From Candidatus Dadabacteria bacterium (GTDB lineage Bacteria > Desulfobacterota_D > UBA1144 > Nemesobacterales > Nemesobacteraceae), in assembly GCA_951812735.1 (NCBI GenBank), contig OX638332.1, positions 1,469,928 through 1,533,927 on the forward strand: a DNA stretch of 64,000 nucleotides, in the 5' to 3' direction. The first letter of the stretch is position 1. Every line of letters begins with the position of its first letter. Below the pieces are notes generated by a model. The model had not been told where the DNA came from, made no database searches, and saw only the letters and a list, made by a program, of their open reading frames with translations. Made by a program: the position numbers and the translations under genes. Positions 12,312-36,985 of the stretch are shown in pieces.

Positions 12312-12314
12312 CGG

Positions 12315-13790
12315 CTACCCTTGGTACCACTTCCCGGTGCTTTCCCCGGTAAAGATGTTAACGCACTTGGTCTCAAGGTAGTTGTCTATTCCTTCGGCTC
12401 CGAGTTCCTTTCCGATTCCGCTCTGTTTAAAGCCCCCGTATGGGGTTTCGGGGATTATCCCCCCGTAGGTGTTAACCCAGAGATATCCGGCCTCAACGGC
12501 CTTTGCGACTCGGAGTGCCCGGTTTATGTCCTGTGTCCAGATTCCTCCGGCAAGTCCGTACTCAACGTCGTTTGCCATCGTGATTGCCTCTTCCTCGGTC
12601 TTAAACGGCATGACGCAGACCACCGGTCCGAAAACCTCCTCGCGCGCGAGGGTAGAGCCGGGAGGGACGTCCTCCAAAACTGTGGGCGCTATGTAGTAGC
12701 CCTTCTCGAATCCCTCGGGGCGGTCTCCGCCCGCGATCACTCGCGCTCCTTCTGAGACGCCTTTTTCTATGTAGTTCATTACGCTCTCGTAGTGCTCTTT
12801 TGAGATCACGGTCCCGAATTCGGTTTCGGGGTCTTCGGGGTCCCCGATTCTTATCCTCGAGATCCTGTCTAGGTAAGCCGATAAAAACTCGTCGTATATC
12901 TCTTCGTGGAGCATGAGCCTGGTCACGGCGGTGCAGTTCTCCCCCTGATTAAAGAAACCTCCACGAAGACATGCCTCGACGGCTCCCTCGACGTTTGCGT
13001 CGGGAAAAATCATGCAAGGGGCCTTGCCGCCTAGCTCAAGCGATACCCTTTTTATCTCTCCCGCCGCCGTCCTCATGACGTTTTTTCCGACTTCCGTGGA
13101 ACCAGTAAACGCTATCTTGGCCACATCGGGGTGTTCTGTGAGCGCCTGACCGGCTACTGATCCTTCGCCGGGCACGACGTTGAGCACCCCGTCTGGAAGT
13201 CCTGCCTCTGAGCAGAGTTTCGCCACCTCGAAGATCCCGCATGAGGTAAGTTCAGCGGGTTTTATGACCACGGTGCATCCGGCAACGAGTGCGGGGGCTA
13301 TTTTCCAGAAGGAAAGAAGAAGGGGGAAATTCCACGGGATTATGTGGGCCGCTACGCCCACGGGTTCTTTTATGGTCAGGGATATCTGGTTTTCGTTTAC
13401 CTGCAGGGTTTCTCCGTTAAGACGGGTGTGAGCTCCTGAGTAATACTCAAGCGTTCTCACGGAACCGCCTATCTCAACCTCAGCGCTCTCGCGTATGGGC
13501 TTTCCCGTCTCGCGGGTGTTTACAAGGGCAATCTTATCTCTGTTGTCAGATAGTACCTGGGCGATCCGAAGAAGGTACTTGGCGCGCTCGGATGCAGGGA
13601 GACGAGACCACCCGGGAAAAGCGCGCTCGGCGGCCCGAACTGCTGCGTCGATGTCTTCTGACCCTCCCTGGGCGACCTCCGCCAGGGGTTTTTCCGTTGC
13701 GGGGTTTTCCCTTACGGAGTAAGCGCCGCTTTGCGGCTCCCTTTCCCCGCCGTCAATGAAAAGATCGCACTTTATTTCCGTACTGGCCAT
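12315..13790 (-). CDS. NAD(P)-dependent aldehyde dehydrogenase
   Basis: ALDH signatures 'FTGSTEVGKNVM', 'ELGGKAPCMIF' and the catalytic Cys context 'FFNQGENCTAVTRL'. Confidence 0.85.
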   Translation of the reverse strand: MASTEIKCDLFIDGGEREPQSGAYSVRENPATEKPLAEVAQGGSEDIDAAVRAAERAFPGWSRLPASERAKYLLRIAQVLSDNRDKIALVNTRETGKPIRESAEVEIGGSVRTLEYYSGAHTRLNGETLQVNENQISLTIKEPVGVAAHIIPWNFPLLLSFWKIAPALVAGCTVVIKPAELTSCGIFEVAKLCSEAGLPDGVLNVVPGEGSVAGQALTEHPDVAKIAFTGSTEVGKNVMRTAAGEIKRVSLELGGKAPCMIFPDANVEGAVEACLRGGFFNQGENCTAVTRLMLHEEIYDEFLSAYLDRISRIRIGDPEDPETEFGTVISKEHYESVMNYIEKGVSEGARVIAGGDRPEGFEKGYYIAPTVLEDVPPGSTLAREEVFGPVVCVMPFKTEEEAITMANDVEYGLAGGIWTQDINRALRVAKAVEAGYLWVNTYGGIIPETPYGGFKQSGIGKELGAEGIDNYLETKCVNIFTGESTGKWYQG

Positions 13791-13986: not shown

Positions 13987-15348
13987 CTACGCACGTCTTC
14001 TCAGGAAAACGACCGAGAGTAGGACGGACGCTACCAGAAACAGGTTAAGCAATGCGCCTTGAGACGTATTGCTGGCTCCGGCGATGGTGCACGCTCCGTC
14101 GTTGCCGTCTGCCGGCGTGCTTTCAGGATAAACCCCGGAACCGAAAATGAAGAGCCATTCACCGGGGTGTGGCACAATCTGCGCGTTTAAGTCCGCTACC
14201 TCGATGTAGCTTGTCTTGGGTGACATGCCGGGAACCATCCTATCTTCGAACCACATTGCAGTTGGTGTATCTCCCGGTTTTAACCAGTGATATTCGACTG
14301 TGGCGGAAGCTCCGACTTCTACGGCCCCTAATTTTTCGTGAAACAGTCTCGCTATGTTCCGTTCACCTTCCAACAGATTATCATTCAAGTCAAGGTTATA
14401 GCCATTTAGGTCAAAGCTGGCTCCGTTCACAAGCACTGTGGACTGTGCTGGGTCTGCGTCCATTACGAAAGCATATATGCTTCCATACTTGAAATCCTCG
14501 CTTCCGAAACAAAAAAGCCGCTCTTGAATTCTTAAGGTTATGGGGCCCTGAACAAGGGCTGCCAGCGTCTGCCTGTCGTCTAAATTACTAATTGGGTCTA
14601 GAGATGGATTTGCGGCTAGCGCTTTGACAGCTTCTTCCTGTGATATCTTTGCTACGTCTTTTTGAACCGCGTCTATAACACTTTGTACGTAAGCTTGAAG
14701 CTTCGTGTGGTCCTCCTCAACTTGCGCAGCGGTAGTGGCAAGCTCGAGACCTTCACAGCCAGGAGGAACAAAGGCGGAGTCGTCTACCGCATGACGAAGA
14801 CCTACTATGTTTGTTACAGGGCTACCAGCAACGGTTTCCTCCACTTTGGCTGCACAGGCCACCCTTTCATTGTTCGGGCCGTAATCCACGCACACCGGAG
14901 GAGCCCCAATCGCAAGATCTTCATGGTCGAGTAAAGCTTTTAAAGTAGCTGCAACCGCCGAATCCATGGCATCCGGATTAAACCTGTATCCTATTCTTAC
15001 GGGATATCCCGCGTGATTCGTTACAATATTCCTGTCCGTTATGCCTATTGCGTAGATATCACCGTGCTTATAGTCTCCGCCATCTTGCCTGATGTTTCTG
15101 GCGAATATTGTCAGTTCTCTGATCAGCGCGGCGCGGTCATCCATGTTGTCGGTTCTAACATGTTCATAGTAATCCACAATACGATTAACAAAATCCGTCA
15201 TCTTCTGTTCATTCCCAGGATCGTCCGCTACATCTTGCGCGGTTATCGTACTGTCTCCGTGAGTGCCGGACGCATCAATGGCGAATGAAAAAACAAGCCC
15301 CAGCGCGAAAAACAGGCTCAACAGTATTCCGTGTGTTTTGAATTTCAT
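13987..15348 (-). CDS. secreted tandem Cache-like domain protein P2 with C-terminal Cys-motif/TM/RRR anchor
   Basis: Signal peptide 'ILLSLFFALGLVFSFAIDA'. 'IYAFVMDADPAQSTVLVNGASFDLNGYNLD' and 'VEYHWLKPGD...KTSYIEVADL...LFIFGSGVYPE' match the sCache_2 pattern. C-terminus 'GNDGACTIAGAS...LLNLFLVASVLLSVVFLRRRA'. Confidence 0.6.
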   Translation of the reverse strand: MKFKTHGILLSLFFALGLVFSFAIDASGTHGDSTITAQDVADDPGNEQKMTDFVNRIVDYYEHVRTDNMDDRAALIRELTIFARNIRQDGGDYKHGDIYAIGITDRNIVTNHAGYPVRIGYRFNPDAMDSAVAATLKALLDHEDLAIGAPPVCVDYGPNNERVACAAKVEETVAGSPVTNIVGLRHAVDDSAFVPPGCEGLELATTAAQVEEDHTKLQAYVQSVIDAVQKDVAKISQEEAVKALAANPSLDPISNLDDRQTLAALVQGPITLRIQERLFCFGSEDFKYGSIYAFVMDADPAQSTVLVNGASFDLNGYNLDLNDNLLEGERNIARLFHEKLGAVEVGASATVEYHWLKPGDTPTAMWFEDRMVPGMSPKTSYIEVADLNAQIVPHPGEWLFIFGSGVYPESTPADGNDGACTIAGASNTSQGALLNLFLVASVLLSVVFLRRRA

Positions 15349-15939
15349 TCTGATTACTCCTCACTGTGATTTTTGTTGTACCAATATTATAGTGCAAAAT
15401 TAATACTTTTCCGCATTAAATCATAATTCAAGGTAGTTATCCCTATAACTAGTCACTTGCTCCATCATATTATTAAGGAATTATTCTTTTAGGTTGACAG
15501 ATTACCGATTGAGCATCGCAGGCTGTGAAAGCTCCATACATCCTAGGGAGGATTGTATTCTATTGCTTAACTGCTTGTCAAGTAAAGGTTAAGTTGTTTC
15601 AGGGCAATACGGAACATCCAATCCTAGCAAGTCCTCCTCTCCATTCGGGTGAATGGAACTCTCAAACTTCCCCAACATGAATTCAGCCGATGAATTGCCC
15701 GCTTCCACGGGAAGCAAAGATGTCGCTGGGACGGGATGGCTCTGGGAATTTAAAGCACTACACTGCGGGTTCAAGGAGGCGATACGGGGTTTGTAGGGCT
15801 TGTAAACTTAAATCTGTACCCCTTCCTCAATCATTAGATCCAAAAACACTTGAATATTATACAAAAAACACTAGGGAGAGTGCCGTCCTCCAGCAACCTC
15901 CCTCCCTCATCTTACTTCTGGCTGGTTATAGGGGCAGTT

Positions 15940-16095
15940 ACCAAAAAAATCTATGTGGTAAATCCCTCAGGATTCTTGGAAGAGTGTCAGGATTTTTACT
16001 GCGGGCGGGTCCTGCCTCTCGTGTTTGATTTCCGGAGTCAACAAGAGGGTCGCGCTTTGCTGTTTTCCAGATCAGGCAGACAGCGCTTTTGTTGA
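15940..16095 (+). pseudogene. remnant of nucleoside 2-deoxyribosyltransferase-like gene (N-terminal fragment only; ATG replaced by ACC)
   Basis: 'KKIYVVNPSGFLEECQDFYCGRVLPLV' is paralogous to the N-terminus of the 17814..18275 gene. The reading frame terminates after about 50 aa and the remaining space is too short for a full gene. Confidence 0.35.
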
Positions 16096-16143
16096 TTCTT
16101 TTACTTTCTTGCTTTGAAGAGGATTAAGGTGTTTCGTAATGTC

Positions 16144-16204
16144 GAAAAAAAACTGGTTATCAAGGGCGACATCAACTCGTTTGTGAAAACCGCCCTTGAT
16201 AACC
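16144..16204 (-). terminator. rho-independent terminator of paralog P3
   Basis: 14-bp stem 'ggttatcaagggcg...cgcccttgataacc', followed on the minus strand by 'aguuuuuuuuc'. Confidence 0.6.
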
Positions 16205-16250
16205 AGCTATAAGTTCCGGAAAAAGCTTCCGGAAAAATTTTTGTTCCCAC

Positions 16251-17657
16251 CTATACGCGTCTTCTCAGAAAAACAACCGAGAACAGAACGGACATTGTCA
16301 GGAACAGGTTAAGCAACGTGCTCTGAGGCATATGTCCCGTCCCCGCGATTGCGCATCCGTCACCACCATCTCCTGTTGTCATCTCCGGCATCATCTCATC
16401 CTCAGGATAAGTTCCGGAACCAAAGATGTAGAGAAAATCAGGAAACATGCTATATCTAGGGTCCAGTTTCAAGACCTCGGTTATGTTCGCAACCTCAATG
16501 TAGCTTGTCTTAGGCGAACTGCCGGGAACCGATCCCATTTCAAACCAGCCGGGAATGCCATCGTCCGGATCATCGGGGTCGTCCCAGCGGTAGCTGACGG
16601 TAGCGGATTGTCCAGCTTGATAGGTTCCACTTCCGCCTGTCAATTCGTCGCGAAACAGGCTCACTATACTATCGTCAGTCCTTCCCAATTCATCGTCATT
16701 CACTTGAAGGTCAAGGCCGTTCAGGTCGAAGTTGTTTCCGTTCATAAGTACGGTGCCGGCCATATCCGTACTCATGATGAAAGCGTATATGTTCTTATGC
16801 TTGAAGTCCCCGCTTGCAAAACAAGCGATTGTGTCGAAAACTCTTTCGAATATTTTTGTTTGAAATTCGCCTGCCGCAGCTAACCCATCTGGATCTTGCG
16901 GATTAGTAAGTAGCACAAAAGACCGAGCCAAGAGACTAGCATTATCTGGATCATTAAATGCAGCATCAGTTGAATCTACCAGTAGCTGTTGAGCAGCCCC
17001 GATAATACCTTTTACGTAATCTTTAAGCTTATCGTGGTCGTTATAAACTTGCTCAGCGGTAGTATCAAGCATGAAATTGTTGCAGGCATCGGGAAGAGCA
17101 AAAGCAGCATCGTCTTCCGCGTGATGAAGGCCTGCTATGACTGTTATAATTCCGGAAAGGCTCCTTACTTTTGTCGCGCAGGCTACATTGTCCTGACCGT
17201 CATAATTTTCTTCACAATGTGCCATGTCGACATCTGAACCGTCGATTAAAGCTTGTATGGTACTCGCAATAGGTGTCCCGGGATCCGATTTAAGCTGGTG
17301 ACCGAGTAACGATCGGGAATATATAGCGTGATTCGTTACATATCCCCTTGAGTTTAAGGCCATTGAGTACATGTTGTTTTGGGTGTTTTTATAGGGCCCT
17401 TCTTCCCTGAGCCGCCTTCCATATATTGTAATTTCCCTGTTCTGCGCATCCGGGGCGCTATCGGCAATAACCTGATCGTAGTAATCTATTATATGACCAA
17501 GAAAGGCTTCCACTTCCGCTTTACTTGTAGGGTCGACGTCTCCCGCGGCTGTGCCTGTACCGTCCCCGTGACTGGCGGACGCCTCAATGCCGAACGAAAA
17601 AACAAGCCCGAGCGCAAAAAACAGGCTCAAAACCATTCCGTATGTTCTAAGTCTCAT
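16251..17657 (-). CDS. secreted tandem Cache-like domain protein P3 with C-terminal Cys-motif/TM/RRR anchor
   Basis: Signal peptide nearly identical to P2 ('MVLSLFFALGLVFSFGIEA'). 'NIYAFIMSTDMAGTVLMNGNNFDLNGLDLQ' and 'VSYRWDDPDDPDD...KTSYIEVANI...LYIFGSGTYPE'. C-terminus 'GDGGDGCAIAGTG...LLNLFLTMSVLFSVVFLRRRV'. Confidence 0.6.
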   Translation of the reverse strand: MRLRTYGMVLSLFFALGLVFSFGIEASASHGDGTGTAAGDVDPTSKAEVEAFLGHIIDYYDQVIADSAPDAQNREITIYGRRLREEGPYKNTQNNMYSMALNSRGYVTNHAIYSRSLLGHQLKSDPGTPIASTIQALIDGSDVDMAHCEENYDGQDNVACATKVRSLSGIITVIAGLHHAEDDAAFALPDACNNFMLDTTAEQVYNDHDKLKDYVKGIIGAAQQLLVDSTDAAFNDPDNASLLARSFVLLTNPQDPDGLAAAGEFQTKIFERVFDTIACFASGDFKHKNIYAFIMSTDMAGTVLMNGNNFDLNGLDLQVNDDELGRTDDSIVSLFRDELTGGSGTYQAGQSATVSYRWDDPDDPDDGIPGWFEMGSVPGSSPKTSYIEVANITEVLKLDPRYSMFPDFLYIFGSGTYPEDEMMPEMTTGDGGDGCAIAGTGHMPQSTLLNLFLTMSVLFSVVFLRRRV

Positions 17658-25596: not shown

Positions 25597-26793
25597 CTAT
25601 CCGTTCTCTATTTCCTTTATCCTGTCAAGAATTTTGTTTGCAAGTTCGAACTTGCTCATGAGCGGAAGTTCTTCGATTCTCTCTCTGTCCACTAACCACG
25701 CGATATTGGTATCTTCCCCGAAGCCTGCCTGCGGGGCCGTAACGTCGTTTGCCACTATGAGGTCGAGATTCTTTTCGTCGAGCTTCTTTTTGGAGTTGTT
25801 GACGAGGTTTTCGGTTTCGGCGGCGAACCCCACCAGAATTCTGTCTTTTTTATCCTCCCCGAGCGATTTTAGTATGTCCCGGGTTTTCTTAAGGGGAATA
25901 GAGAGCTCTTTTTTCGATTTCTTTATCTTCTGCTCTGATTTCTCACAGGGCGAGTAGTCGCTTACGGCCGCCGATTTTATCACTATACCAGACCCCTCGA
26001 AGCGCTCGTGGATTCGCTCGTACATATCATCACAATCCGTTACCCGCACCACTTCCACTCCGTGGGGGTCAGGAAGGGAAGAGTGTGCCGAGACCAGGGT
26101 CGCCCGGGCTCCGCGAAGCCACCCCGCCCGGGCTATCGAGTAGCCCATCTTGCCGGTCGAGGGGTTGGATATGAATCTCACGGGATCTATGTGCTCCCTA
26201 GTCGCCCCGGCGCTCACCAGTATGTTCTCTCCCGCGTAGTCCTGCGGAGTGACCGCCTTCTGGACCTCAAGAGCGATAACGTCCGTTTCGGCAAGCCTCC
26301 CTCTGCCGGTCCACCCGCAGGCGAGATCTCCCTCGCCGGGTTCCACTATGGTGAATCCGTGGTGCCTCAGTTTTTCCATGTTTTCCTGAACTATTGAGTT
26401 TGAGTACATGTTCGAGTTCATGGCCGGGCAGATGATTACGGGAGCTTTTGTTGCCAGTATGACGGTTGCGAGCAGGCTGTCGGCTATTCCCGAAGCGATT
26501 TTGCCTATGAAGGACGCACTTGCGGGCGCGACCACTACTACATCGGCCTCGTCAGCGATTTTTATGTGACCTATCTCGGATTCTGAAGTCAGGTCAAAGA
26601 GGTTTGAGGCAACCTTGTTTCCCGAAAGAGTCTGGAGGGTTAGGGGGGTTATGAAGCGCTCGGCGTTTTTGGTCATTGCGCACCGCACCTCCGCCCCGTC
26701 TCTAACGAGAGATCTCACAAGTTCGCAGGACTTGTAGGCGGAGATGCCACCCGTTATTCCCACTACGACGTTTTTTCCACGAAGCAGTTCCAT
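25597..26793 (-). CDS. coaBC: bifunctional phosphopantothenoylcysteine decarboxylase/phosphopantothenate-cysteine ligase
   Basis: Flavoprotein N-domain 'GKNVVVGITGGISAYKS' and a CoaB C-domain, 398 aa. Confidence 0.9.
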   Translation of the reverse strand: MELLRGKNVVVGITGGISAYKSCELVRSLVRDGAEVRCAMTKNAERFITPLTLQTLSGNKVASNLFDLTSESEIGHIKIADEADVVVVAPASASFIGKIASGIADSLLATVILATKAPVIICPAMNSNMYSNSIVQENMEKLRHHGFTIVEPGEGDLACGWTGRGRLAETDVIALEVQKAVTPQDYAGENILVSAGATREHIDPVRFISNPSTGKMGYSIARAGWLRGARATLVSAHSSLPDPHGVEVVRVTDCDDMYERIHERFEGSGIVIKSAAVSDYSPCEKSEQKIKKSKKELSIPLKKTRDILKSLGEDKKDRILVGFAAETENLVNNSKKKLDEKNLDLIVANDVTAPQAGFGEDTNIAWLVDRERIEELPLMSKFELANKILDRIKEIENG

Positions 26794-26844
26794 AAAATAA
26801 AGTATATTGCCGCCTCGGAAATAGGCAATACGCAGGCCTCGGTC

Positions 26845-28548
26845 CTAGACCCCGTCGGTTACGGCCCCTTGGGAAGCGGAGGAGACAAGCCTTGAGTATT
26901 TTGCCAGCACGCCGGTTTCTTCCCTAGCCGCCGGTTTCTTCCAGGTTTTCTTTCTCCTTCCAAGCTCTTTTTTCGGCACGTTAAGAGTTATTTCCCTGCT
27001 TTCTGCGTCAATAGTGATCTCGTCCCCGTTCTTTATGAGCGCTAGGGTGCCGCCGTCAATTGCCTCTGGAGTTATGTGTCCTACAACAAAGCCGTGGGTT
27101 CCGCCTGAGAAACGCCCGTCTGTTATAAGCGCCACGTCTCCTCCCAGGCCCTTGCCCATTACAGCTGCGGTGGGCGCAAGCATCTCCCTCATCCCAGGTC
27201 CGCCCTTTGGGCCCTCGTACCTTACCACTATCACGTGTCCTTTTTTAACCCTGCCGTCTAGAATCGCCTTAAGACTCTGCTCCTCGGAGTTAAACACTAT
27301 CGCTTTTCCGGTAAAGGAGTTGCCTTCCTTGCCCGTTATCTTCGCCACCGCTCCTTCAGGCGCGATATTTCCCTTTAGAATAACTATATGGGCCGATTCT
27401 TTTATCGGGCTCTTTACCGGGTGAACTATTTTCTGTCCCCTGGGGTATCTTTTCACTCCCCGAAGGTTCTGCTTTAGGGTTTTTCCGGTCACCGTCATGC
27501 AGTCGCCGTGGAGAAATCCCTCGTCAAGGAGGATTCTAAGCAGGGGGGTGAGTCCCCCTATCTTGCAGAAATCAGACATCATGTACTGCCCGCTCGGCTT
27601 GAGATCGGCTAGAACAGGAACTTTTTTCCCGACTCTGGTGAAATCGTCTATGGTGAGTTTTACCCCCGCGGCGTTTGCCATGGCGAGCAGGTGAAGGACC
27701 GAGTTTGTTGAGCCTCCGAGCGCGACGACTACTGTTATGGCGTTTAGGAAGGCTTTTTTCGTCATTATGTCCCTGGGCGTTATGTTCTCCCTTATGAGGT
27801 TCACAACTGCCGCCCCTGCGTTTTTACAGTCAGCCACCTTGTCTTTTGAAACTGCCGCCTGGGCGGAGCTGTTCGGAAGACTCATCCCGAGGGCCTCTAT
27901 TGCCGAAGCCATGGTGTTCGCGGTGTACATCCCCCCGCAGGAACCGGCTCCGGGAATGGCGCAGGACTCAATCTCCTTTAATTCAGAATCGGTAATATCA
28001 TTGTTTGAGTGCGCTCCCACGGCTTCAAACACCGAGACGATGTCCACGTCCTTTCCCCTGTAGTTGCCCGGAAGTATCGTTCCGCCGTAGACGAACACAG
28101 AAGGTCTGTTGAGCCTTGCCATCGCCATGAGGCATCCGGGCATGTTCTTGTCGCATCCCCCTATGGCCACGATTCCGTCAAACCCTTCTCCTGCGGTCAC
28201 CGTTTCGATCGAGTCGGCGATGACTTCTCTGGATACGAGGGAGTATCTCATTCCCGGAGTCCCCATGGATATTCCGTCGGACACGGTAATGGTGTTAAAG
28301 ATTATGGACTTGCCCCCGGCCTTGTTCGCCCCCGCGGCCCCGTGTCTTGCAAGCTGGTCTATGTGCATGTTGCAGGGTGTTACCATGCTCCAGGTTGACG
28401 CTATTCCTACTACGGGTTTCTTAAAGTCTCTGTCGGTAAAGCCCACGGCCCTCAGCATGGAGCGGCTGGGTGCTCTGTGCGCCCCTTCCACGTAGATTGA
28501 AGAGTATTTTCTGGGGGTTTCTTTTTTCTTAGCGGTTTTCGTTGCCAA
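26845..28548 (-). CDS. ilvD: dihydroxy-acid dehydratase
   Basis: IlvD/EDD family with the Fe-S cysteine contexts 'CDKNMPG' and '[15 protein letters not shown]'. Confidence 0.9.
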
Positions 28549-28816
28549 TAGAGTATTCCTCCTTGTGTTGACCGTGCCGAGTTCAGCTGATCGATTATTC
28601 CGGTAAATTCTAACTTAAAATACACTTTCGCGCGATAACAGAAGGTCGGGGTCTTTCCCAGACTTATCCGGCACTTGCGATCAAGTCATTTGAGATATTC
28701 CGGCCGAAACCGAATACAGAAGAAATCAAGTTCCAAGAAAGTATTTAGCACTTAGCAGGAAAATACGGAATTAGTGATATTCGGTATGTTGCAATTCCAA
28801 ACCGTCGAAGTCGGAA

Positions 28817-29946
28817 CGACTTTACTCACGATCAGCGAATGGGCGCTGCATACAAAAGCCCCCCTGCTTTCCAGGAAGCGTTAAGCCCTCTTTCAAGTGC
28901 TAGAGGAGTCTTGGGCCCCAGATGCCTTTCGAATATTTCCCCGTAGTTGCCTACGGCTGAAATTGCGTTAACGGCCCACTTTTTGTCAAGACCGAGCATT
29001 TCGCCCATGCTGCCTTCGGTGCCTAGAAAACGGTTCATACCCGGATTATTTCCAGGCTTCTTAGCGAGTTCCTTGACGTTTTTCTGGGTGATGCCCATCT
29101 CTTCTGCGATAATCAGCGCGTTGACCACCCACTTTCCGATATCAGCCCAACGGTCATCTCCGTGGCGCACCGCGCCGCCCAGGGGTTCTTTTGAAATGAT
29201 TTCGGGAAGAATCACATGCTCTGAAGGATTTTTCAGCGCCGCTCGCGTAGAGGCTAAAGCCGACGCGTCGGTTGTGTACACGTCGCATCTTCTGCTTTCA
29301 TACATGATGATGCTCTCTGCGTTGGTTCCGGTATTGAGATGCTCGTACTCCATTTTGTTGAATCTGAAGTAATCCGACAAGTTAAGTTCCGTGGTGGTGC
29401 CGACCTGGACGCATACTGAAGCCCCGGCCAGCTGTTTTGCCGACGTTACCCCAAGACTCCTGCGGATTAAAAAGCCCTGACCATCATAGTAGTTAACGGG
29501 TAGGAAGGTCAGTTTCAGGTCAGCGTCACGACTCAGCGTTTCGGTGGTGTTGCGGAAGAGTATGTCGCCTTCGCCAGCATTTAGCTGGGCAAAACGCGTT
29601 CTATTCGTAGACGGTACGAAATTTACCTTGTCCCCGCTTCCCAGCACGGCAGCGGCTACGGCGCGACAGAAATCGACATCAAAACCCTGCCAGCCGCCTT
29701 TTCCGTCCGGAGATGCGAATCCGGCCAAGCCCGATGAAACAATACAGTTGAGCTTGCCTCGCGCTTTGACATCCTCAAGGGTGCCGGCATCAGCCATGGC
29801 TGTGAATGAAAACAGTACGGCAATAATTGCCAGAAGCTTCGTTACTCTCATACCTACTATTTTCTTAAGCAGGATGAACCGTCTTGAATTTAAGGATGAA
29901 ATCAGATTTCTGCCCCCTCTCTTATGTAAAATAATCATATTTTCCA
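28817..29946. repeat. duplicated segment A (aapJ copy 1 plus about 15 nt 3' and about 95 nt 5' flank)
   Basis: Near-identical to 33077..34200, including the post-stop 'gtttactcacgatcagcgaatgggcgctgc' and the upstream 'cttgaatttaagga' element. Confidence 0.75.
28832..29851 (-). CDS. aapJ: general L-amino-acid ABC transporter substrate-binding protein, copy 1 (start at internal Met preceding the signal peptide)
   Basis: Signal peptide 'MRVTKLLAIIAVLFSFTAMA', then 'GKLNCIVSSGLAGFASPDGKGGWQGFDVDFCRAVAAAVLG' typical of the AapJ/BztA family. About 93% nucleotide identity to the 33093..34112 copy. Confidence 0.8.
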   Translation of the reverse strand: MRVTKLLAIIAVLFSFTAMADAGTLEDVKARGKLNCIVSSGLAGFASPDGKGGWQGFDVDFCRAVAAAVLGSGDKVNFVPSTNRTRFAQLNAGEGDILFRNTTETLSRDADLKLTFLPVNYYDGQGFLIRRSLGVTSAKQLAGASVCVQVGTTTELNLSDYFRFNKMEYEHLNTGTNAESIIMYESRRCDVYTTDASALASTRAALKNPSEHVILPEIISKEPLGGAVRHGDDRWADIGKWVVNALIIAEEMGITQKNVKELAKKPGNNPGMNRFLGTEGSMGEMLGLDKKWAVNAISAVGNYGEIFERHLGPKTPLALERGLNASWKAGGLLYAAPIR

Positions 29947-30741
29947 TCAGTGATTCAGTATCTGGCTTAAAAACAGCTTCGTTCTTTCATGCTGCGGGTT
30001 CAGGAAAAAGTCGTCGGGGTTGTTCTCCTCAATTATTTCTCCGTTGTCCATGAAGATGACGCGGTCGCCGACAGTTCTTGCGAATCCCATTTCATGGGTC
30101 ACGCATATCATGGTGATCCCTTCGCTTGCCAGCTGAATCATCACATCCAGCACTTCCTTGATCATTTCGGGGTCAAGTGCCGATGTGGGTTCGTCAAACA
30201 GCAGTATCCGGGGTTTCATGCAGAGACTTCGCGCTATCGCCACGCGCTGCTGCTGGCCCCCGGAGAGCTGACCCGGGTACTTGTCCGCCTGCTCGGGAAT
30301 CTTGACTCTTTCCAGGTATTGCATGGCAATTGCGTTTGCCTCCGCAAGAGGCATTTTGCGGACCCATATGGGGGCAAGGGTACAGTTCTCAAGCACCGTC
30401 AGATGCGGAAACAGGTTGAAGTGCTGAAAGACCATGCCCACCTCGCGCCGAATGATCTCGATGTTCTTGATGTCATGGGACAGTTCTATTCCCTCAACGG
30501 TGATTTCTCCCTGCTGGTGTTCCTCCAGCCGGTTGATGCATCTGATTAATGTTGATTTCCCCGAACCCGATGGGCCGCATATAACGATTTTTTCCCCGAC
30601 TTCGACATTAAGATTGATGTTTTTAAGCGCATGGAACTTGCCGTACCATTTGTGCACATCCCGCATTGTTACCGCATATTTCCCCGCGGCCGATTTTGTT
30701 TCCTCATTCACTGATTCAGGTTTTTGGGTCATTTGCGCCAT
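29947..30741 (-). CDS. aapP: amino-acid ABC transporter ATP-binding protein
   Basis: Walker A 'GPSGSGKST', signature '[15 protein letters not shown]', Walker B '[12 protein letters not shown]'. Confidence 0.85.
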
Positions 30742-30746
30742 GCTCC

Positions 30747-31856
30747 TTATCTTTTATGATCGGTTTCCAGTTTGTTTTCAAGGTGCTGTGAATATCTTGC
30801 CATACCAAAACAGGAGATAAAAAAGAATATTGCCACGAACAGATAAACCTCGGTTGAGAGCCCCGTCCACTTTGTATCTGCGAGAGATGCCCTGCCTATT
30901 CCAAGCGGATCCAGAAGCCCGATAATAATTACCAGCGTTGTATCCTTGTATAGTCCGATAAAAGTATTCACTATGCCGGGTATGGAAATCTTCATCGCCT
31001 GGGGCAATACGATCAGCCTCATGGCGGACCAGTAATGCAGCCCCATTGAATCCGCGGCTTCGAACTGTCCTTTCGGTATTGCCTGCAGACCTCCACGGAT
31101 AACTTCCGCCATGTATGCCGACGCGAAAAGGGTAACCATAATCAGTACGCGCAGCAGAAGATCGAAAGTCACTCCTGGAGGGAGGAAATAATTAAGCATC
31201 GTTGAAGCTACGAACAGAAGAGTAATCAACGGTACTCCGCGGATAAACTCAATGAAGCCTATTGAAAATATCTGTATTGCGGGGAGCTTCGACTGACGAC
31301 CCAGAGCCAGCAGAATCCCGATCGGTAATGAAAACCCGATGCCGGTTATCCCGATGACCAGGGTAAGCATGAAACCGCCGAACTGGTCGGTTTCGACAGG
31401 GGTAAGACCCAGTCCTCCGACCAGAAGCCATGCGGTGACGAATGGGAAGGCGACCGCGATATGAAGAGCGTATTTGCGATAAGGCACTTTTTCAAAGAGT
31501 ATCGGAAAGAGAGTGAAAATCAGCAGGACAAGTGAAAGATTCACCCGCCAGCGCTCAGCGGCTGGGTAAAAACCATAGGTGAACAGGTTAAGACGTTCAC
31601 CTATAACTGCCCAGCACGCACCGCCAGCCTTGGCGCTGCATTCATCTCTGCTTCCCCCGGTAAATGCCGCGTCAAGAAACAGCCAGTCCACAAGCGCGGG
31701 AACGGTTTCAATCAGGAACCAGAACGCCAGAAGCGTTAAAACTATGTTTGTGGCACTTGAGAAAAAATTTTTTCTTGTCCAGGCGTAGATCCCTATTACG
31801 TTACGAGGCGGCGGAAGATCGGGATGCTCTCCAACTTTGTAGTTTTTTTGGTTTAT
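30747..31856 (-). CDS. aapM: amino-acid ABC transporter permease (AapM-like); start is probably a non-ATG codon upstream of the ORF-track Met
   Basis: The frame is open from just after the aapQ stop. The extension '[45 protein letters not shown]' looks like a genuine permease N-terminus. An AGGAGG RBS lies 8 nt before an in-frame ATA codon at 31856-31854. Confidence 0.7.
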
Positions 31857-31868
31857 AACTATTTCCTC

Positions 31869-33044
31869 CTAACGTTCAACCAGCCTGATTCGTTTGTTGT
31901 AGATGTTCATCGCGAAGGATATCAGCAGGGATAACGAGAGATACAGCAATAGCACGATAATCATGCATTCCATTTCCCTGCCCGTCTGGTTAAGCGTAAT
32001 GCCACCGATGGTGGCGACTATATCCATGTAGCCGATCGCGATGGCTAGAGATGAATTCTTGGCAAGGTTAAGATATTGCGAGGTAAGCGGTGGTACTATC
32101 ACTCTCAGCGCCTGGGGAATCACGACTAGGTTAAGCGTTCTGCCGTGGTTTATCCCAAGGGCCAGGGACGCTTCGGTCTGCCCGTAATTGACGGAGATGA
32201 TACCGGCCCTTACTATCTCGGCTATAAACGCGGCTGTATACAGGGAAAGTGCAATCCAAAGTGCGGTGAATTCAGGCCTGATCACCATGCCTCCGCTAAA
32301 GTTAAATCCCGTCAGCGCGGGTATCTCAAAGGTGATCGGACCACCTATCAGAAAATAGGAGACAAACGGAATTCCCAGTATGGCCCCCAGCGATATCCAG
32401 AACACCGGGTAGTGCTCTCCCGTTTTTCTCTGTATGTCCGCCGCATATCTGCGGAACCATATTGTGAAAACAATCCCTGCGGTGAACAAGCCCAGAATCA
32501 CCAGAAACAGAGGTTCGAAAATTGGTTTGGGAAGAAAAAAGCCGCGATTAGTCAGAAACGCGATATCGCCGAGACTTTGCGCTTCTCTGGGCACGGGAAG
32601 CGTATTAACTATGATCCCGTATACAAGTAGTATGTGGAGCAGTACGGGTACATTCCTTACGTAATCAATATAGATGTGGGCAAGCTTGTTTGCCAGCAGG
32701 TTTTTCGACAGCCGCAGAACACCCAGCGAGAATCCAAGAACCGTTGCCAGAACTATGCCGCTTACCGCCACCAGAAGGGTGTTCAGAATTCCCACCAGCA
32801 TTGCGCGGAAGTGAGTGGAACGGGACGTGTATTCTATTAGATGCTGATTTATATCATAGCTTGCGGGCTCCTGCAGATAGCCGAAACTAAACCCTTTGCC
32901 TATTGCTTCAAGGTTGACAATGGCATTTCTTACTAGGTAGGCGAACAAGCCGAAGATCAGCACGACTGCGAGGACCTGAATAATAACGGATCGGGAATGT
33001 TCATCCCTCCACAATCGAGACAGAGAAACTTTTGGATCCATCAC
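31869..33044 (-). CDS. aapQ: amino-acid ABC transporter permease (AapQ-like)
   Basis: Polytopic permease with EAA-loop context 'EASLALGINHGRTLNLVVIPQALR'. Confidence 0.8.
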   Translation of the reverse strand: MMDPKVSLSRLWRDEHSRSVIIQVLAVVLIFGLFAYLVRNAIVNLEAIGKGFSFGYLQEPASYDINQHLIEYTSRSTHFRAMLVGILNTLLVAVSGIVLATVLGFSLGVLRLSKNLLANKLAHIYIDYVRNVPVLLHILLVYGIIVNTLPVPREAQSLGDIAFLTNRGFFLPKPIFEPLFLVILGLFTAGIVFTIWFRRYAADIQRKTGEHYPVFWISLGAILGIPFVSYFLIGGPITFEIPALTGFNFSGGMVIRPEFTALWIALSLYTAAFIAEIVRAGIISVNYGQTEASLALGINHGRTLNLVVIPQALRVIVPPLTSQYLNLAKNSSLAIAIGYMDIVATIGGITLNQTGREMECMIIVLLLYLSLSLLISFAMNIYNKRIRLVER

Positions 33045-33076
33045 ATTCGTGCTGCGGCTTCGGTTTGAATCATTAT

Positions 33077-34200
33077 TGACGTTTACTCACGATCAGCGAA
33101 TGGGCGCTGCGTACAAAATCCCCCCTGCTTTCCAGGAAGCATTAAGCCCCCTTTCAAGCGCTAGAGGAGTCTTGGGCCCCAGATGCCTTTCGAATATTTC
33201 CCCGTAGTTGCCTACGGCTGAAATTGCGTTAACGGCCCACTTTTTGTCAAGACCGAGCATTTCGCCCATGCTGCCTTCGGTGCCTAGAAAACGGTTCATA
33301 CCCGGATTATTTCCAGGCTTCTTAGCGAGTTCCTTGATGTTTTTCTGGGTGATGCCCATCTCTTCTGCGATAATCAGCGCGTTGACCACCCACTTTCCGA
33401 TATCAGCCCAACGGTCATCTCCGTGGCGCACCGCGCCGCCCAGGGGTTCCTTTGAAATGATTTCGGGAAGAATCACATGCTCTGAAGGTTTTTTCAGCGC
33501 CGCTCGCGTAGAGGCTAAAGCCGATGCGTCGGTTGTGTACACGTCGCATCTTTTGCTTTCATATGCGACGATGCTTTCTTCATTTGTTTCGGTATTGACA
33601 GGCTCGTACTTCATTTTGTTGGCTCTGAAGTAATCCGCCAGGTTAAGTTCCGTGGTGGTACCGGTCTGGATGCACACTGAAGCTCCGGCCAACTGTGTTG
33701 CTGACGTTACCCCAAGACTTTTGCGGATTAAAAAGCCCTGACCATCATAGTAGTTAACGGGCAGGAAGGTCAGTTTCAGGTCAGCGTCACGACTCAGTGT
33801 TTCGGTGGTGTTGCGGAAGAGTATGTCGCCTTCGCCAGCATTTAGCTGGGTAAAACGCGTTTTATTCGTAGTCGGTACAAATTTCACTTTGTCCCCGCTT
33901 CCCAGCACGGCAGCGGCTACGGCGCGGCAGAAATCGACATCAAAGCCCTGCCAGTTGCCTTTTTCATCCGGAGAGGCGAATCCGGCCAAGCCCGATGAAA
34001 CAATACAGTTGAGCTTGCCTCGTGCTTTCACATTTTCAAGGGTGCCGGCATCAGCCATGACTGTGAATGAAAACAGTACGGCAATAATTACCAAAAAATT
34101 TGTCACTCTCATACCAAGTACCTCCTTAGAGTAGGGTCTTTTGAATTTAAGGACGGAATCAAACATTTGAAAAACTCTCCTTATTCTAATTTTAAATGCA
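33077..34200. repeat. duplicated segment B (aapJ copy 2 with flanks)
   Basis: See 28817..29946. The 3' roughly 450 bp and the 5' roughly 250 bp of the genes are almost identical. Confidence 0.75.
33093..34112 (-). CDS. aapJ: general L-amino-acid ABC transporter substrate-binding protein, copy 2 (start at internal Met with strong RBS)
   Basis: Signal peptide 'MRVTNFLVIIAVLFSFTVMA'. 'taaggaggtacttggtATG' RBS. Differs from copy 1 mainly in a central block. Confidence 0.8.
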   Translation of the reverse strand: MRVTNFLVIIAVLFSFTVMADAGTLENVKARGKLNCIVSSGLAGFASPDEKGNWQGFDVDFCRAVAAAVLGSGDKVKFVPTTNKTRFTQLNAGEGDILFRNTTETLSRDADLKLTFLPVNYYDGQGFLIRKSLGVTSATQLAGASVCIQTGTTTELNLADYFRANKMKYEPVNTETNEESIVAYESKRCDVYTTDASALASTRAALKKPSEHVILPEIISKEPLGGAVRHGDDRWADIGKWVVNALIIAEEMGITQKNIKELAKKPGNNPGMNRFLGTEGSMGEMLGLDKKWAVNAISAVGNYGEIFERHLGPKTPLALERGLNASWKAGGILYAAPIR

Positions 34201-34368
34201 ATCATATTCTCCGGCGTTTTGCAATTAGGAATATCAGGGACGGAAGGAAAAATTTTTGCGAATTCAGAAATCAAAACGCGAGAAAAACAAGCAAGTCATT
34301 ATGACACACAGAGAACCGGTTGGCATTTGATAAACCAGAGATGGGATTTTAGAGGCGGACGAAGGAGT

Positions 34369-35904
34369 TTATTCGTCTTTGTCCGTTATTCTCGAGAAAA
34401 GGTTCTCTCCTTTTTTTATAGCCGTTCGGGGTTTCGTACCTCCCCAGTCTGTGTCTTCGGCGTCGACCTCGGTAGGGAGGCCGATTTTCTCCCGCATCTT
34501 GCGAGCGGTTTCCGGTAGAAACGGGTAGATGAGAAGGGAAATCACCCTGATGCTTTCGGCAAGCGTCCAGAGCACCACCTTGAGTCGTTCTCTCTGTTCT
34601 TCCTGTTTCGCGAGTTTCCAGGGCGCCGTGTTATCGACATACCTGTTTACAAGCGCTATAAATTCCCATATGCGGGAAAGCGCCCTGTTAAAAGCGAGTT
34701 CCTCAAGATCAGAGCGGACCTGTTGCGCCGTCTCTCGGTAGAAATCCCCTATTTTCTCCTCGCTTTCCGATAACTCAGCGGGCTCTGGAACGACACCCCC
34801 GAGGTATCTCTCTATCATCCCGAGCGAACGGCTCACAAGATTTCCGAGTCCGTTCACGAGCTCCCCGTTCACGCGGCTTACAAGCGATTTCCTGGAGTAA
34901 TCCCCGTCCTGTCCGAAAGGTATTTCACGAAGCAGAAAATAGCGGAAGATCTCGGAACCGAATTCCTCCACCACCTGATAGGGGTCAACCACGTTCCCCA
35001 GGGATTTCGACATCTTCTCCCCTTCGACAGTCCACCACCCGTGGGCGAAGACGGTTTTCGGTAGTGGGAGTCCCGCTGACATTAAAAACGCGGGCCAGTA
35101 GACAGCGTGGAACCTGAGTATGTCTTTTCCGACAAGATGAATGTCAGCCGGCCAGAACGCCTCGAAATCTCCGGTTTTCCGGGGGAAACCCAGTGACGTC
35201 AGGTAATTCGTCAGGGCGTCAAACCACACGTAGACCACGTGCCCTTCGGAGTCGGGAACAGGTATTCCCCATGAGAAGTTCGTCCTGCTTACGCTCAGGT
35301 CCCTCAGGCCTCCCTCAACGAAGCTTACGACTTCGTTTCTTCTGTAATCGGGTTTTATGAATTCTGGGTGTTCGCTGTAGTGACGAAGAAGAGGCTCCTG
35401 GTATTCCGAGAGCCTGAAGAAGTAGCTTTCCTCTTTTATTTTTTCAAGGCGAGGGCGGTTTTTCTCTGGAAGCTTCATTATCTCTTCAACCTGGGTTTCG
35501 GTTATGAAAGCCTCGTTTCTTACGTCGTACCACCCCTCGTACTCATCAAGGTATATATCCCCGTTTTTCTCTACGAGCCTCCAGATCTCGGAGACCGCCT
35601 CGTGGTGGCGCGATTCCGTAGTTCTTATGAAATCGGTGTTTGAGATGCCCAGAACTTTCCACAGATCCTGGAACTTTACTACCACCCTGTCGGCAAGTTC
35701 TATGGGAGTCTCTCCGCCCGTTTGGGCGGTCTGCTCTATTTTTCTTCCGTGCTCATCAGTTCCCGTTAGAAAGTAGACTTCGTGTCCCGAGGCGGCCTTG
35801 TATCTTGCTATCGTATCGGCCGCTATGGTCGTGTAGGCGTGGCCTATGTGCGGCACATCGTTTACATAGTAGATTGGCGTTGTTACATAGAACTGCTTTT
35901 TCAT
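34369..35904 (-). CDS. metG: methionine--tRNA ligase (short form without C-terminal EMAP domain)
   Basis: HIGH motif 'PHIGHAYTTIAADTIARY', KMSKS 'KMSKSLGNVV', zinc knuckle absent or short, 511 aa. Confidence 0.9.
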   Translation of the reverse strand: MKKQFYVTTPIYYVNDVPHIGHAYTTIAADTIARYKAASGHEVYFLTGTDEHGRKIEQTAQTGGETPIELADRVVVKFQDLWKVLGISNTDFIRTTESRHHEAVSEIWRLVEKNGDIYLDEYEGWYDVRNEAFITETQVEEIMKLPEKNRPRLEKIKEESYFFRLSEYQEPLLRHYSEHPEFIKPDYRRNEVVSFVEGGLRDLSVSRTNFSWGIPVPDSEGHVVYVWFDALTNYLTSLGFPRKTGDFEAFWPADIHLVGKDILRFHAVYWPAFLMSAGLPLPKTVFAHGWWTVEGEKMSKSLGNVVDPYQVVEEFGSEIFRYFLLREIPFGQDGDYSRKSLVSRVNGELVNGLGNLVSRSLGMIERYLGGVVPEPAELSESEEKIGDFYRETAQQVRSDLEELAFNRALSRIWEFIALVNRYVDNTAPWKLAKQEEQRERLKVVLWTLAESIRVISLLIYPFLPETARKMREKIGLPTEVDAEDTDWGGTKPRTAIKKGENLFSRITDKDE

Positions 35905-35989
35905 AATTTCAGTTTCCCGGATGAAGAGTATCCGGGTTTCGGATTAATAAAACACAATAAAGCGGCATTTCAATCTTCTAAAGGCTATT

Positions 35990-36985
35990 TTACTGCGATA
36001 ATCTAAGCAGAAGGTTTTCAAGAGAAACCTCGACATTCGCGTTATTCTCCGAAATCCTTGCCATTGTTTCCTCAAGAGCGGCGAATTTGCCCAGAAGTTC
36101 GGATACGTCCCTTTTCCCCGAGTATTCGCTTAACTGCTCAAGCAGGTCGGTATTCACTATCTCTTCTTTTTCCCCGGAAGTTTTGAGAATCACCGAATCC
36201 CGAAGCCATGTAGAGAGAATGTCAAAAACCGTTTTCAGTTCTTCCGGTCCGCCGCCTTTTACGTCTTTCTGTATTCTCTCCACGGAATCAAAAAGGGTAA
36301 GCGGCTTTTTACTGTCGACGGCTATTACGCAGTCTACGTATTCGGTTCTTTTGCGAAGGTACTCTTCATCGGTATTAAGCGCTCTTGAGATGCTGCCTCC
36401 GGATATTCTCGAGACAAGCTCCGGGTCATTGCCCTCCGGTTTTTCCTTTTCCAGAAAACTTTTTACCTGCTCCGTCTCAAGGGGCTGGAACACGACAGAC
36501 TGGCATCTTGATCTTATGGTAGGCATGAGCAGGTCTGCAAGCGTTGTTATAAGGATTATGACTGAGTTCGGCGGCGGTTCTTCAAGGGTCTTTAGAAACG
36601 CGTTCTGAGCGTTGAAGTTCATTCTCTGCGCGCCGTCGATTATGAAGACCTTGTATGGATTCTCATAGGGCGCCAGGTGAATCAAACGCTCTATGTCCTG
36701 TCTTACGTGGTCCACTTTTATCGTTTTCTCGCCCGGATATCCGAACACGAGAACATCGGGGTTAAGGCCTTTTTCTGTCTTCACGCACGAGATGCATTCG
36801 CACTCGGGGTTCTCTGCTCCGCCCTCGGAGCAGTTTATGAGTTTCGCGAAACCGATGGCGACCAGTTTTTTCCCTACGCCCTCGGGTCCTGAGAAAAGGT
36901 AGGCGTGCGAGATCCGGTTTTTATGGACCGAGTTCCGAAGAAATTCCTTCTGGGGTTCGTGTCCTATGATCTGCGGAAATCCCAT
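35990..36985 (-). CDS. holB: DNA polymerase III subunit delta'
   Basis: AAA+ clamp-loader fold with 'HAYLFSGPEGVGKK', the zinc module 'CSEGGAENPECECISC' and SRC-like 'TIRSRCQ'. Confidence 0.8.
   Translation of the reverse strand: MGFPQIIGHEPQKEFLRNSVHKNRISHAYLFSGPEGVGKKLVAIGFAKLINCSEGGAENPECECISCVKTEKGLNPDVLVFGYPGEKTIKVDHVRQDIERLIHLAPYENPYKVFIIDGAQRMNFNAQNAFLKTLEEPPPNSVIILITTLADLLMPTIRSRCQSVVFQPLETEQVKSFLEKEKPEGNDPELVSRISGGSISRALNTDEEYLRKRTEYVDCVIAVDSKKPLTLFDSVERIQKDVKGGGPEELKTVFDILSTWLRDSVILKTSGEKEEIVNTDLLEQLSEYSGKRDVSELLGKFAALEETMARISENNANVEVSLENLLLRLSQ

Follow-up and report, generated by a model that had tools for sequence, protein, structure and literature searches.

Two substrate-binding protein genes at a predicted Aap-type amino acid importer of Dadabacteria, homogenised by gene conversion outside two short islands

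Why would an operon for one transporter carry two substrate-binding protein (SBP) genes that are nearly, and not quite, the same? The question is raised by a five-gene locus on the minus strand of a 64,000-nucleotide (nt) stretch of the genome of an uncultured marine bacterium, Candidatus Dadabacteria (contig OX638332.1; hereafter, the window), where it is flanked by metG (34369-35904) and ilvD (26845-28548). A first-pass annotation of the window, made from its letters, had given the gene order as SBP (33093-34112)-aapQ-aapM-aapP-SBP (28832-29851), and this order was borne out by the open reading frames (ORFs) and their family matches. We refer to the SBP gene at 33093-34112 as up, to that at 28832-29851 as dn, and to gene orders by the letters J (SBP), Q and M (permeases), and P (ATPase). 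The 64-kb window holds two SBP genes but only a single Q, a single M, and a single P, as determined by tblastn. The answer that we consider probable is that the locus encodes one Aap-type importer with two SBPs, that these arose by duplication in place and were homogenised by gene conversion except in two islands under selection, and that they would differ in side-chain preference or affinity.

By its sequence, the locus is an ATP-binding cassette (ABC) importer for polar amino acids of the Aap/Bzt/YhdWXYZ type, a prediction made because of the NCBIfam and Pfam families of the five genes, the match to 4Z9N, and the agreement of the AlphaFold2 (AF2) fold. The best solved relative of the up SBP was 4z9n (E = 1.5e-121 over residues 22-339, HMMER), a Brucella ovis BztA-like SBP crystallised with glutathione. 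The AF2 model of dn had a mean predicted confidence (pLDDT) of 81.6, with template modelling (TM) scores of 0.77-0.81 and 57% identity to 4z9n. Both SBPs belong to the periplasmic SBP_bac_3 (cluster F) fold, with a C-terminal extension and a Sec signal peptide. The J-Q-M-P order recurs in more than 15 homologous loci.

The two copies within the window

The features on which the comparison rests are as follows.

33093 to 34112, minus strand: up, ancestral-type AapJ/BztA-like SBP gene, 339 amino acids (ORF; Pfam SBP_bac_3, PF00497; TIGR01096)
28832 to 29851, minus strand: dn, derived SBP copy, 339 amino acids (ORF; SBP_bac_3, PF00497; TIGR01096)
33082 to 34161, minus strand: repeat unit, upstream copy, comprising leader, coding sequence, and 11 nt past the stop codon (blastn self-match, 92.5% over 1085 columns)
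28821 to 29904, minus strand: repeat unit, downstream copy (blastn self-match; alignment)
29588 to 29623, minus strand: island 1 in dn, codons 77-88, with K77N, T81S, K84R, and T88A fixed in 11 of 11 genomes (up equivalent, 33849-33884)
29303 to 29410, minus strand: island 2 in dn, codons 148-183, fixed in 11 of 11 genomes (up equivalent, 33564-33671)
28901 to 29302, minus strand: homogenised 3' tract in dn, codons 184-317, with 5 differences in 402 nt and including the 178-nt identical run described below (up equivalent, 33162-33563)

The two SBP coding sequences, 4.3 kb apart in direct orientation within one operon, are each 1020 nt long and aligned without gaps. They differed at 64 nt (93.7% identity, in agreement with the approximately 93% claimed in the first-pass annotation) and at 28 amino acids (91.8% identity). 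These differences were strongly clustered rather than evenly spread: nt 1-600 held 56 of them and nt 601-1020 the other 8 (Fisher p = 6e-7). The longest identical run reached 178 nt (permutation p = 4e-4). The densest block of differences, 20 in 108 nt, fell at codons 148-183 and contained the peptide that had been quoted as an example of the divergence. A single dense central block had been proposed; the clustering was confirmed, but two short islands, at codons 77-88 and 148-183, describe it better than one block.

The ends of the repeat were less uniform than had been described. Near-identity at the 3' end held, with the 8 differences noted for nt 601-1020, but identity stopped abruptly 11 nt beyond the stop codon and not 15 nt as claimed. 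The 5' leader and signal peptide had also been called nearly identical, and this was not the case; the first 66 nt of the coding sequences had 7 differences (89% identity) and 4 amino acid changes. The leaders aligned loosely, with an indel, and the 5' limit of similarity lay roughly 53-95 nt upstream of the ATG (53 nt by blastn). The Shine-Dalgarno sequence was AAGGAGG (strong) for up versus AAGAAAATAG (weak, degraded) for dn. The signal peptides read off the sequence are MRVTNFLVIIAVLFSFTVMA for up and MRVTKLLAIIAVLFSFTAMA for dn, each ending immediately before DAG.

Homogenisation, fixed differences, and origin of the copies

A scan of species-representative genomes, combined with exact look-ups, identified the J-Q-M-P-J locus in ten further Dadabacteria (Thermodesulfobacteriota) assemblies: L001, L002, L003, L005, L007, L008, L081, L082, L084, and one short-read metagenome-assembled genome (MAG) in which it is split between L004 and L006. 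Together with the window, 11 genomes were compared. Most of the loci sit between metG and ilvD, and several of the assemblies are complete chromosomes of 1.5-2.3 Mb, labelled Thermodesulfobacteriota or Candidatus Dadabacteria. L083 (84% amino acid identity) and L012 (71%), the closest relatives to carry only one SBP gene, have J-Q-M-P-ilvD in the same context. Because the double locus is present in the 11 genomes and a single SBP gene in L083 and L012, the duplication is placed in the stem of the clade, before the split of the 11 genomes, whose orthologs differ by 5-12%. The SBP pair is neither an assembly artefact nor recent.

Trees of two segments of the gene gave different groupings. For nt 121-600, the dn copies formed one clade (bootstrap 100%), and the two copies of no genome paired with each other. 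For nt 601-1020, the paralog clades vanished and copies from the same genome paired (bootstrap 85% for the window and 81% for L084). Over codons 201-339, the synonymous distance (dS) between paralogs was 0.10 within genomes versus 0.23 between genomes, with orthologs at 0.19-0.24. A Sawyer-type permutation test on runs of concordant polymorphic sites detected a tract in the window at nt 778-951 (p = 6e-4) and tracts in L001, L002, L005, and L084 (p < 2e-4); the same test found no significant conversion tract in the six other genomes. A 5' tract was visible in L084, where up carries dn-type residues at positions 50 and 53.

Outside the islands, the paralogs lay no further apart than the orthologs did. 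At codons 89-147, the paralog distance was 0.064 versus ortholog distances of 0.062 and 0.055; at codons 208-317, it was 0.069 versus 0.064 and 0.068. The within-genome paralog distance outside the islands was lower still (0.038). In contrast, the paralog distance was 0.18 in island 1, where orthologs differ by 0.03-0.07, and 0.17 in island 2, where orthologs differ by 0.025-0.037. The first-pass suggestion of duplication followed by gene conversion is thus supported by the same-genome clustering of the 3' part, the low dS there, and the Sawyer-type test. However, conversion was not confined to the ends of the gene as suggested; it spans all but the two islands, and within the window its trace at the 5' end is weak. 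A literature search on gene conversion between SBP paralogs returned nothing relevant.

Seventeen nucleotide differences between the paralog groups were fixed across the 11 genomes, and all of them fell inside the two islands, which measure 36 nt and 108 nt. Sixteen were non-synonymous and 1 was synonymous, versus 95 and 196, respectively, among polymorphic sites (Fisher p = 4.6e-7); a version of the fixed-difference count with 8 genomes gave 19:1. The fixed amino acid positions number 13 (77, 81, 84, 88, 148, 150, 164, 171, 172, 175, 178, 182, and 183), and those in island 2 are I148V, T150V, A164F, P171H, V172L, E175G, E178A, V182I, and A183M. When polarised by L083 and L012, most changes proved to be derived in dn (K77N, K84R, T88A, P171H, V172L, E175G, E178A, and A183M), and up has the family-typical residue at nearly all diagnostic positions. 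Residues K77, K84, T88, P171, V172, E175, and E178 were at least 90% conserved in a 43-sequence family alignment, and the dn states R84, A88, V150, F164, H171, L172, and M183 were found in 0 of 74 outgroup homologs. Among the 29 closest database proteins retrieved, dn-type residues occurred only in the cluster of dn itself (P0001).

Both copies are under strong purifying selection, with ortholog ratios of non-synonymous to synonymous distance (dN/dS) of 0.04 for up and 0.09 for dn. The first-pass annotation had spoken of diversifying change in the divergent part. Selection is indeed indicated by the contrast of 16:1 with 95:196, but symmetric diversification is not, as most of the change was a one-off set of substitutions in dn, after which each copy has stayed conserved. 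There is good support for selection to retain the differences, but not for a dN/dS above 1.

The manner of duplication left traces in relatives of the window. A 210-bp fossil of the 3' end of aapP, 89% identical to window positions 30156-29947, lies approximately 70 nt after dn in L002 (about 15359-15568) and in L005 (about 17068-17277), and it is gone from the window itself. In a cross-genome alignment, homology between the dn and up leaders extended as far as the aapP stop codon. In L084, the leader has been almost wholly deleted, and dn starts 17 nt after aapP. Because of the fossil and the leader homology, these sequences suggest that the whole operon was duplicated in tandem and that the second Q and M and most of the second P were later deleted.

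Could the same pattern have come about without conversion and selection? Strong constraint on the 3' part, for example on a shared docking surface, or a very recent duplication would also give low 3' divergence; both proteins would have to dock on the same permease, and the family-specific C-terminal extension is rich in invariant residues. However, dS is low there too (0.05 for the window pair versus 0.17-0.30 further 5'), and ortholog non-synonymous distance (dN) is higher at the 3' end (0.021-0.031) than in the centre (0.013-0.018), so that the similarity is not just a matter of protein-level constraint. The grouping of the copies by genome rather than by paralog in nt 601-1020 and the age of the duplication, which exceeds the split of the 11 genomes, also speak against this explanation; the trees and the dS values contradict it, and we regard it as highly improbable. 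It is scarcely credible that the assembly produced one of the copies by collapsing or duplicating a repeat, a possibility named in the first-pass annotation, or that the islands are a patch from a foreign homolog. The short-read MAG contigs L004 and L006 do break at the SBP genes, but the ten other independent assemblies, several of them complete chromosomes, also have two distinct copies, set apart by the same 13 fixed differences. A foreign recombination patch should have brought many synonymous differences, whereas a synonymous change makes up just 1 of the 17 fixed differences, and the homolog searches described above turned up nothing resembling a donor; this origin of the islands was rejected. 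Very unlikely, in our view, is that dn is a redundant duplicate heading for loss, with its differences reflecting drift under relaxed constraint. An IS4-like transposase disrupts dn in L005, the dn Shine-Dalgarno sequence is degraded in the window, and the dN/dS of dn is about twice that of up. Even so, dn is intact, with a signal peptide, in 10 of the 11 genomes, and its dN/dS still denotes strong purifying selection; all lineages are fixed for the same 13 differences, which are not scattered; and conversion would have wiped neutral differences, as it did the synonymous ones.

The islands on the fold and the ligands of the two proteins

The islands were placed on the fold from the AF2 secondary structure and by alignment to HisJ and GltI sequences; eight residue numbers given in a GltI paper matched the GltI sequence that was used. 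Published background for this family of folds includes the roles of Tyr14, Ser72, Arg77, and Asp161 in LAO/HisJ and the lobe boundaries of HisJ. In the model, strand beta2, helix alpha2, and the loop between them, all in lobe 1, carry island 1. This island brackets N83 and R86, which presumably align with HisJ L52 and with GltI S72 and R75. Island 2 is predicted to open on the strand leading into an invariant GTTTE loop (HisJ L117-Q122) and then to run through helix 153-164, strand 170-174, loop 175-176, and helix 177-185 of lobe 2. From the topology of the fold, the strand-to-helix loop with E175G and E178A would face the cleft. DEBP His164, which aligns with N177, may be a ligand contact; a literature search on this point found nothing relevant, and it was not used.

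At the positions corresponding to the alpha-carboxylate and alpha-amino anchors (T103, R108, T152/T153, and D195), the residues are invariant and identical in both copies, which bears on the predicted transport of L-amino acids. Because these anchors are unchanged, both SBPs most likely still bind alpha-amino acids or close derivatives. Residues aligned with first-shell contacts to the ligand side chain (L42, N83, R86, and Q149) are also identical in both copies. The 13 fixed replacements flank but exclude the positions aligned with known contact residues, and they would thus be neighbours of the pocket or part of the core of lobe 2. In GltI, S72 is a selectivity site. Both selectivity and affinity are retuned by a single substitution there or by second-shell or allosteric substitutions, and changes outside the pocket shift affinity by orders of magnitude.

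Taken together, these results are consistent with the following history. The whole J-Q-M-P unit would have been tandem-duplicated in the ancestor of the Dadabacteria clade, and deletion of the second Q-M-P would have left J-Q-M-P-J'. The dn gene would then have gained replacements at positions otherwise nearly invariant in the family, with up changing at few sites, and both SBP genes would have remained under strong purifying selection thereafter. Recurrent intragenomic gene conversion would wipe out differences except at codons 77-88 and 148-183, and convertants crossing these islands would presumably be selected against. With the islands beside the side-chain-recognition loop of lobe 1 and the GTTTE loop of lobe 2, up and dn, serving the same AapQM, would differ in side-chain preference or affinity, and import would be widened or partitioned. 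That both SBPs dock on the same translocator we infer from operon position (dn lies 17 nt after aapP in L084) and from their 92% identity. A different side-chain preference would most likely be the functional meaning of the fixed changes; the serious rival is that the two proteins differ in affinity, closure dynamics, or docking.

Several points weigh against this reading. The first-shell positions, as judged by homology to HisJ/LAO and GltI, are the same in up and dn, so that any effect on specificity must come from the second shell or from contacts specific to the longer family. The changes A164F, V172L, V182I, and A183M resemble the repacking of the core of one alpha-beta-alpha unit, and they could alter stability, closure, or docking. 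The insertion sequence (IS) in the dn gene of L005 and the weak dn Shine-Dalgarno sequence in the window imply that dn is dispensable at least sometimes. The ratio of 16:1, though well beyond that among polymorphic sites, barely exceeds the roughly 3:1 expected under strict neutrality (hand-calculated binomial p ~0.06), and positive selection is not proven. The history of duplication plus deletion rests on the fossil in two relatives, with none in the window, and the McDonald-Kreitman-type and tree tests drew on related genomes and simple distance methods.

The first two of these points also argue for an alternative in which both SBPs take the same ligands and their differences tune affinity or off-rate, closure dynamics, stability, or competition for docking, as with a pair of high- and low-affinity receptors. 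Many of the fixed changes are increases in hydrophobic size within that one unit of lobe 2, affinity in GltI responds strongly to substitutions outside the pocket, as noted above, and the unequal Shine-Dalgarno strengths suggest unequal dosage. However, K84R, T81S, and T88A lie on either side of the loop that corresponds in the alignment to the GltI selectivity site S72/R75, T150V immediately precedes the GTTTE loop, and E175G and E178A remove two conserved charges from a loop that probably faces the cleft. Moreover, the known paired SBPs HisJ/ArgT and ArtJ/ArtI differ in specificity. We consider the same-ligand alternative unlikely. Decidedly doubtful is a further possibility, that dn was neofunctionalised, in a lineage-specific manner, for a ligand beyond Glu/Gln/Asp/Asn or general amino acids, such as a modified amino acid or small peptide abundant in the habitat. 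If it were true, the 13 protected residues would form a naturally isolated, minimal "specificity code" for AapJ/BztA-type SBPs, because conversion stripped the neutral differences between up and dn.

Returning to one importer with two SBPs that differ in side-chain preference or affinity, conversion has removed nearly all neutral differences, and the 13 positions therefore make a short list of candidate determinants of ligand choice or affinity. Such a list would be of use in the AapJ/BztA/YhdW family, which has a single structure and little specificity data; a literature search on 4Z9N indicated that this structure is unpublished. Whole-operon duplication followed by internal deletion would also be a plausible route to an SBP-QMP-SBP layout. 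For annotators and assemblers, the locus is a caution that near-identical flanking copies can break short-read assemblies.

Transporters with multiple SBPs, gene conversion between bacterial paralogs, and conversion with protected sites are each already known. The argT-hisJQMP locus of Salmonella and E. coli likewise has two SBP_bac_3 paralogs, local duplicates, beside a single set of polar amino acid transport (PAAT) permease and ATPase genes. There, LAO and HisJ deliver different ligands to the shared HisQMP2, and the ligand-anchoring residues are conserved between the HisJ and ArgT paralogs. However, HisJ and ArgT are 70% identical, and their genes are in tandem upstream of QMP with separate promoters, whereas the copies in the window are 92% identical, bracket QMP, and are homogenised by ongoing conversion except at 13 positions. 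The artPIQM-artJ cluster of E. coli has one SBP gene inside the operon and a paralogous second gene beside it, and both ArtI and ArtJ are thought to use ArtQMP2. It differs in that artJ has its own ArgR-controlled promoter and in that its short SBPs (~240 amino acids) belong to another PAAT subfamily. We know of no mosaic or conversion pattern reported for ArtI/ArtJ.

Also among the closest systems are AapJQMP of Rhizobium leguminosarum, BztABCD of Rhodobacter capsulatus, and YhdWXYZ of enterobacteria, which belong to the same subfamily and share the J-Q-M-P order, SBPs of ~340 amino acids with a C-terminal extension, and long permeases. Among characterised members, the substrates are Glu/Gln/Asp/Asn, Asn, or L-amino acids over a broad range. 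To our knowledge, the characterised operons have one cognate SBP gene each, whereas the window has a second, derived SBP gene after aapP. Independent two-SBP operons were found in a Binatia MAG (L078, 1643-6873; J-J' copies 78.5% identical in protein sequence, in the order J-Q-M-P-J) and in an alphaproteobacterial MAG (L066, 4380-10155; J-J-Q-M-P, 74% identical in protein sequence). Conversion also homogenises tufA/tufB and the primate red and green opsins, the latter at all but the spectral-tuning sites. The pair in the window resembles them in that a few important non-synonymous differences persist as islands of divergence in otherwise homogenised paralogs; it differs in that these are bacterial transporter receptors in one operon, with islands of 36 and 108 nt. 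The Cbc (choline/betaine/carnitine) transporter of Pseudomonas, as outlined in Chen et al. 2010 and Thomas 2010, has several SBPs of distinct specificities for one translocator. It shares with the locus in the window the use of one translocator by several SBPs, but in transporters of this kind the extra SBPs are often encoded elsewhere ("orphans"), are much more diverged, and belong to a different ABC family.

Other features of the locus and its relatives

The remaining parts of the locus, between the two SBP genes, are as follows.

31869 to 33044, minus strand: aapQ-like permease gene, 391 amino acids (BPD_transp_1; HEQRo_perm_3TM)
30747 to 31856, minus strand: aapM-like permease gene, of which the ORF with a canonical start covers 30747-31691 only (BPD_transp_1; HEQRo 3-transmembrane domain)
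29947 to 30741, minus strand: aapP-like ABC ATPase gene, 264 amino acids (ABC_tran; GlnQ/EhuA-like)
29852 to 29946, minus strand: spacer between aapP and dn, 95 nt, homologous to the up leader with a degraded Shine-Dalgarno sequence (cross-genome leader alignment)

The aapP-dn spacer likely marks the 5' edge of the duplicated unit.

The start of aapM is unusual. No ATG, GTG, or TTG lies upstream of a conserved in-frame N-terminal region (GEHPDLPPP...), which precedes the first GTG. An ATA (31856-31854) stands 8 nt after a perfect AGGAGG and was kept in 8 of 8 double-SBP genomes compared (the window, L001-L003, and L005-L008), and at the same site outgroups carry ATG (L011, L015, and L016) or GTG (L012). 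The TAG that ends aapQ (31871-31869) shares its reading frame with aapM. From this arrangement, aapM probably starts at the ATA at 31856-31854; either the ATA would be used as a start codon, or aapM would be translated by coupling or read-through from aapQ.

An exact-sequence look-up of both 339-amino-acid SBPs gave no match, probably because gene callers used longer ORFs of 357 or 371 amino acids. Extended ORFs of 371 and 393 amino acids were rejected as the true SBPs, since the extensions are not conserved and the signal peptide would be buried; L084 lacks the dn ORF extension. A scan of 26000-36500 against Rfam gave no match.

The junction between the SBP gene and ilvD is a variable spot. 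A gene for an AAA_14/DUF4143 ATPase lies between dn and ilvD in L001 (15626-16966), L005 (17552-18874), and L081 (13564-14877); L083 has only a fragment (12303-12785), and the window has none, its spacer at 28549-28831 measuring 283 nt. In L005, an IS4-like DDE transposase gene (467 amino acids; 15215-17000) lies within the 3' end of dn and truncates it at codon 318, and the displaced final 83 nt of dn stand after the IS element. In the short-read MAG (JAJEGO01), contig L004 ends at codon 328 of up and contig L006 starts in aapQ; a break at the SBP repeat is expected there because the 3' part of the repeat is 98-100% identical.

The contigs L081 and L082 come from one sample. In both, a gene for the type I restriction enzyme HsdR, transposases, and integrases stand upstream of the locus in place of metG, and in L082 the J-Q-M-P-J locus is followed by genes for a methylase and a specificity subunit; the region has been rearranged by mobile elements in that population. 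Beyond the close Dadabacteria, the most similar SBPs (73-75% amino acid identity, among loci L009-L019) came from gammaproteobacterial MAGs and ranked above L012 (71%), a remoter Thermodesulfobacteriota locus that has the metG/ilvD context. This ranking hints at either past lateral exchange of the operon or uneven evolutionary rates.

A scan for promoters and terminators gave hits no more numerous than in shuffled sequence and was uninformative on separate transcription of dn. Among the hits was a terminator-like hairpin, CTTCCTGGAAAGCAGGGGG with a T-rich run after it, which each SBP gene carries within its final 50 coding nt (28858-28879 and 33120-33139, minus strand). These hairpins within the coding ends are probably due to chance, as their count was not above that in shuffled sequence.

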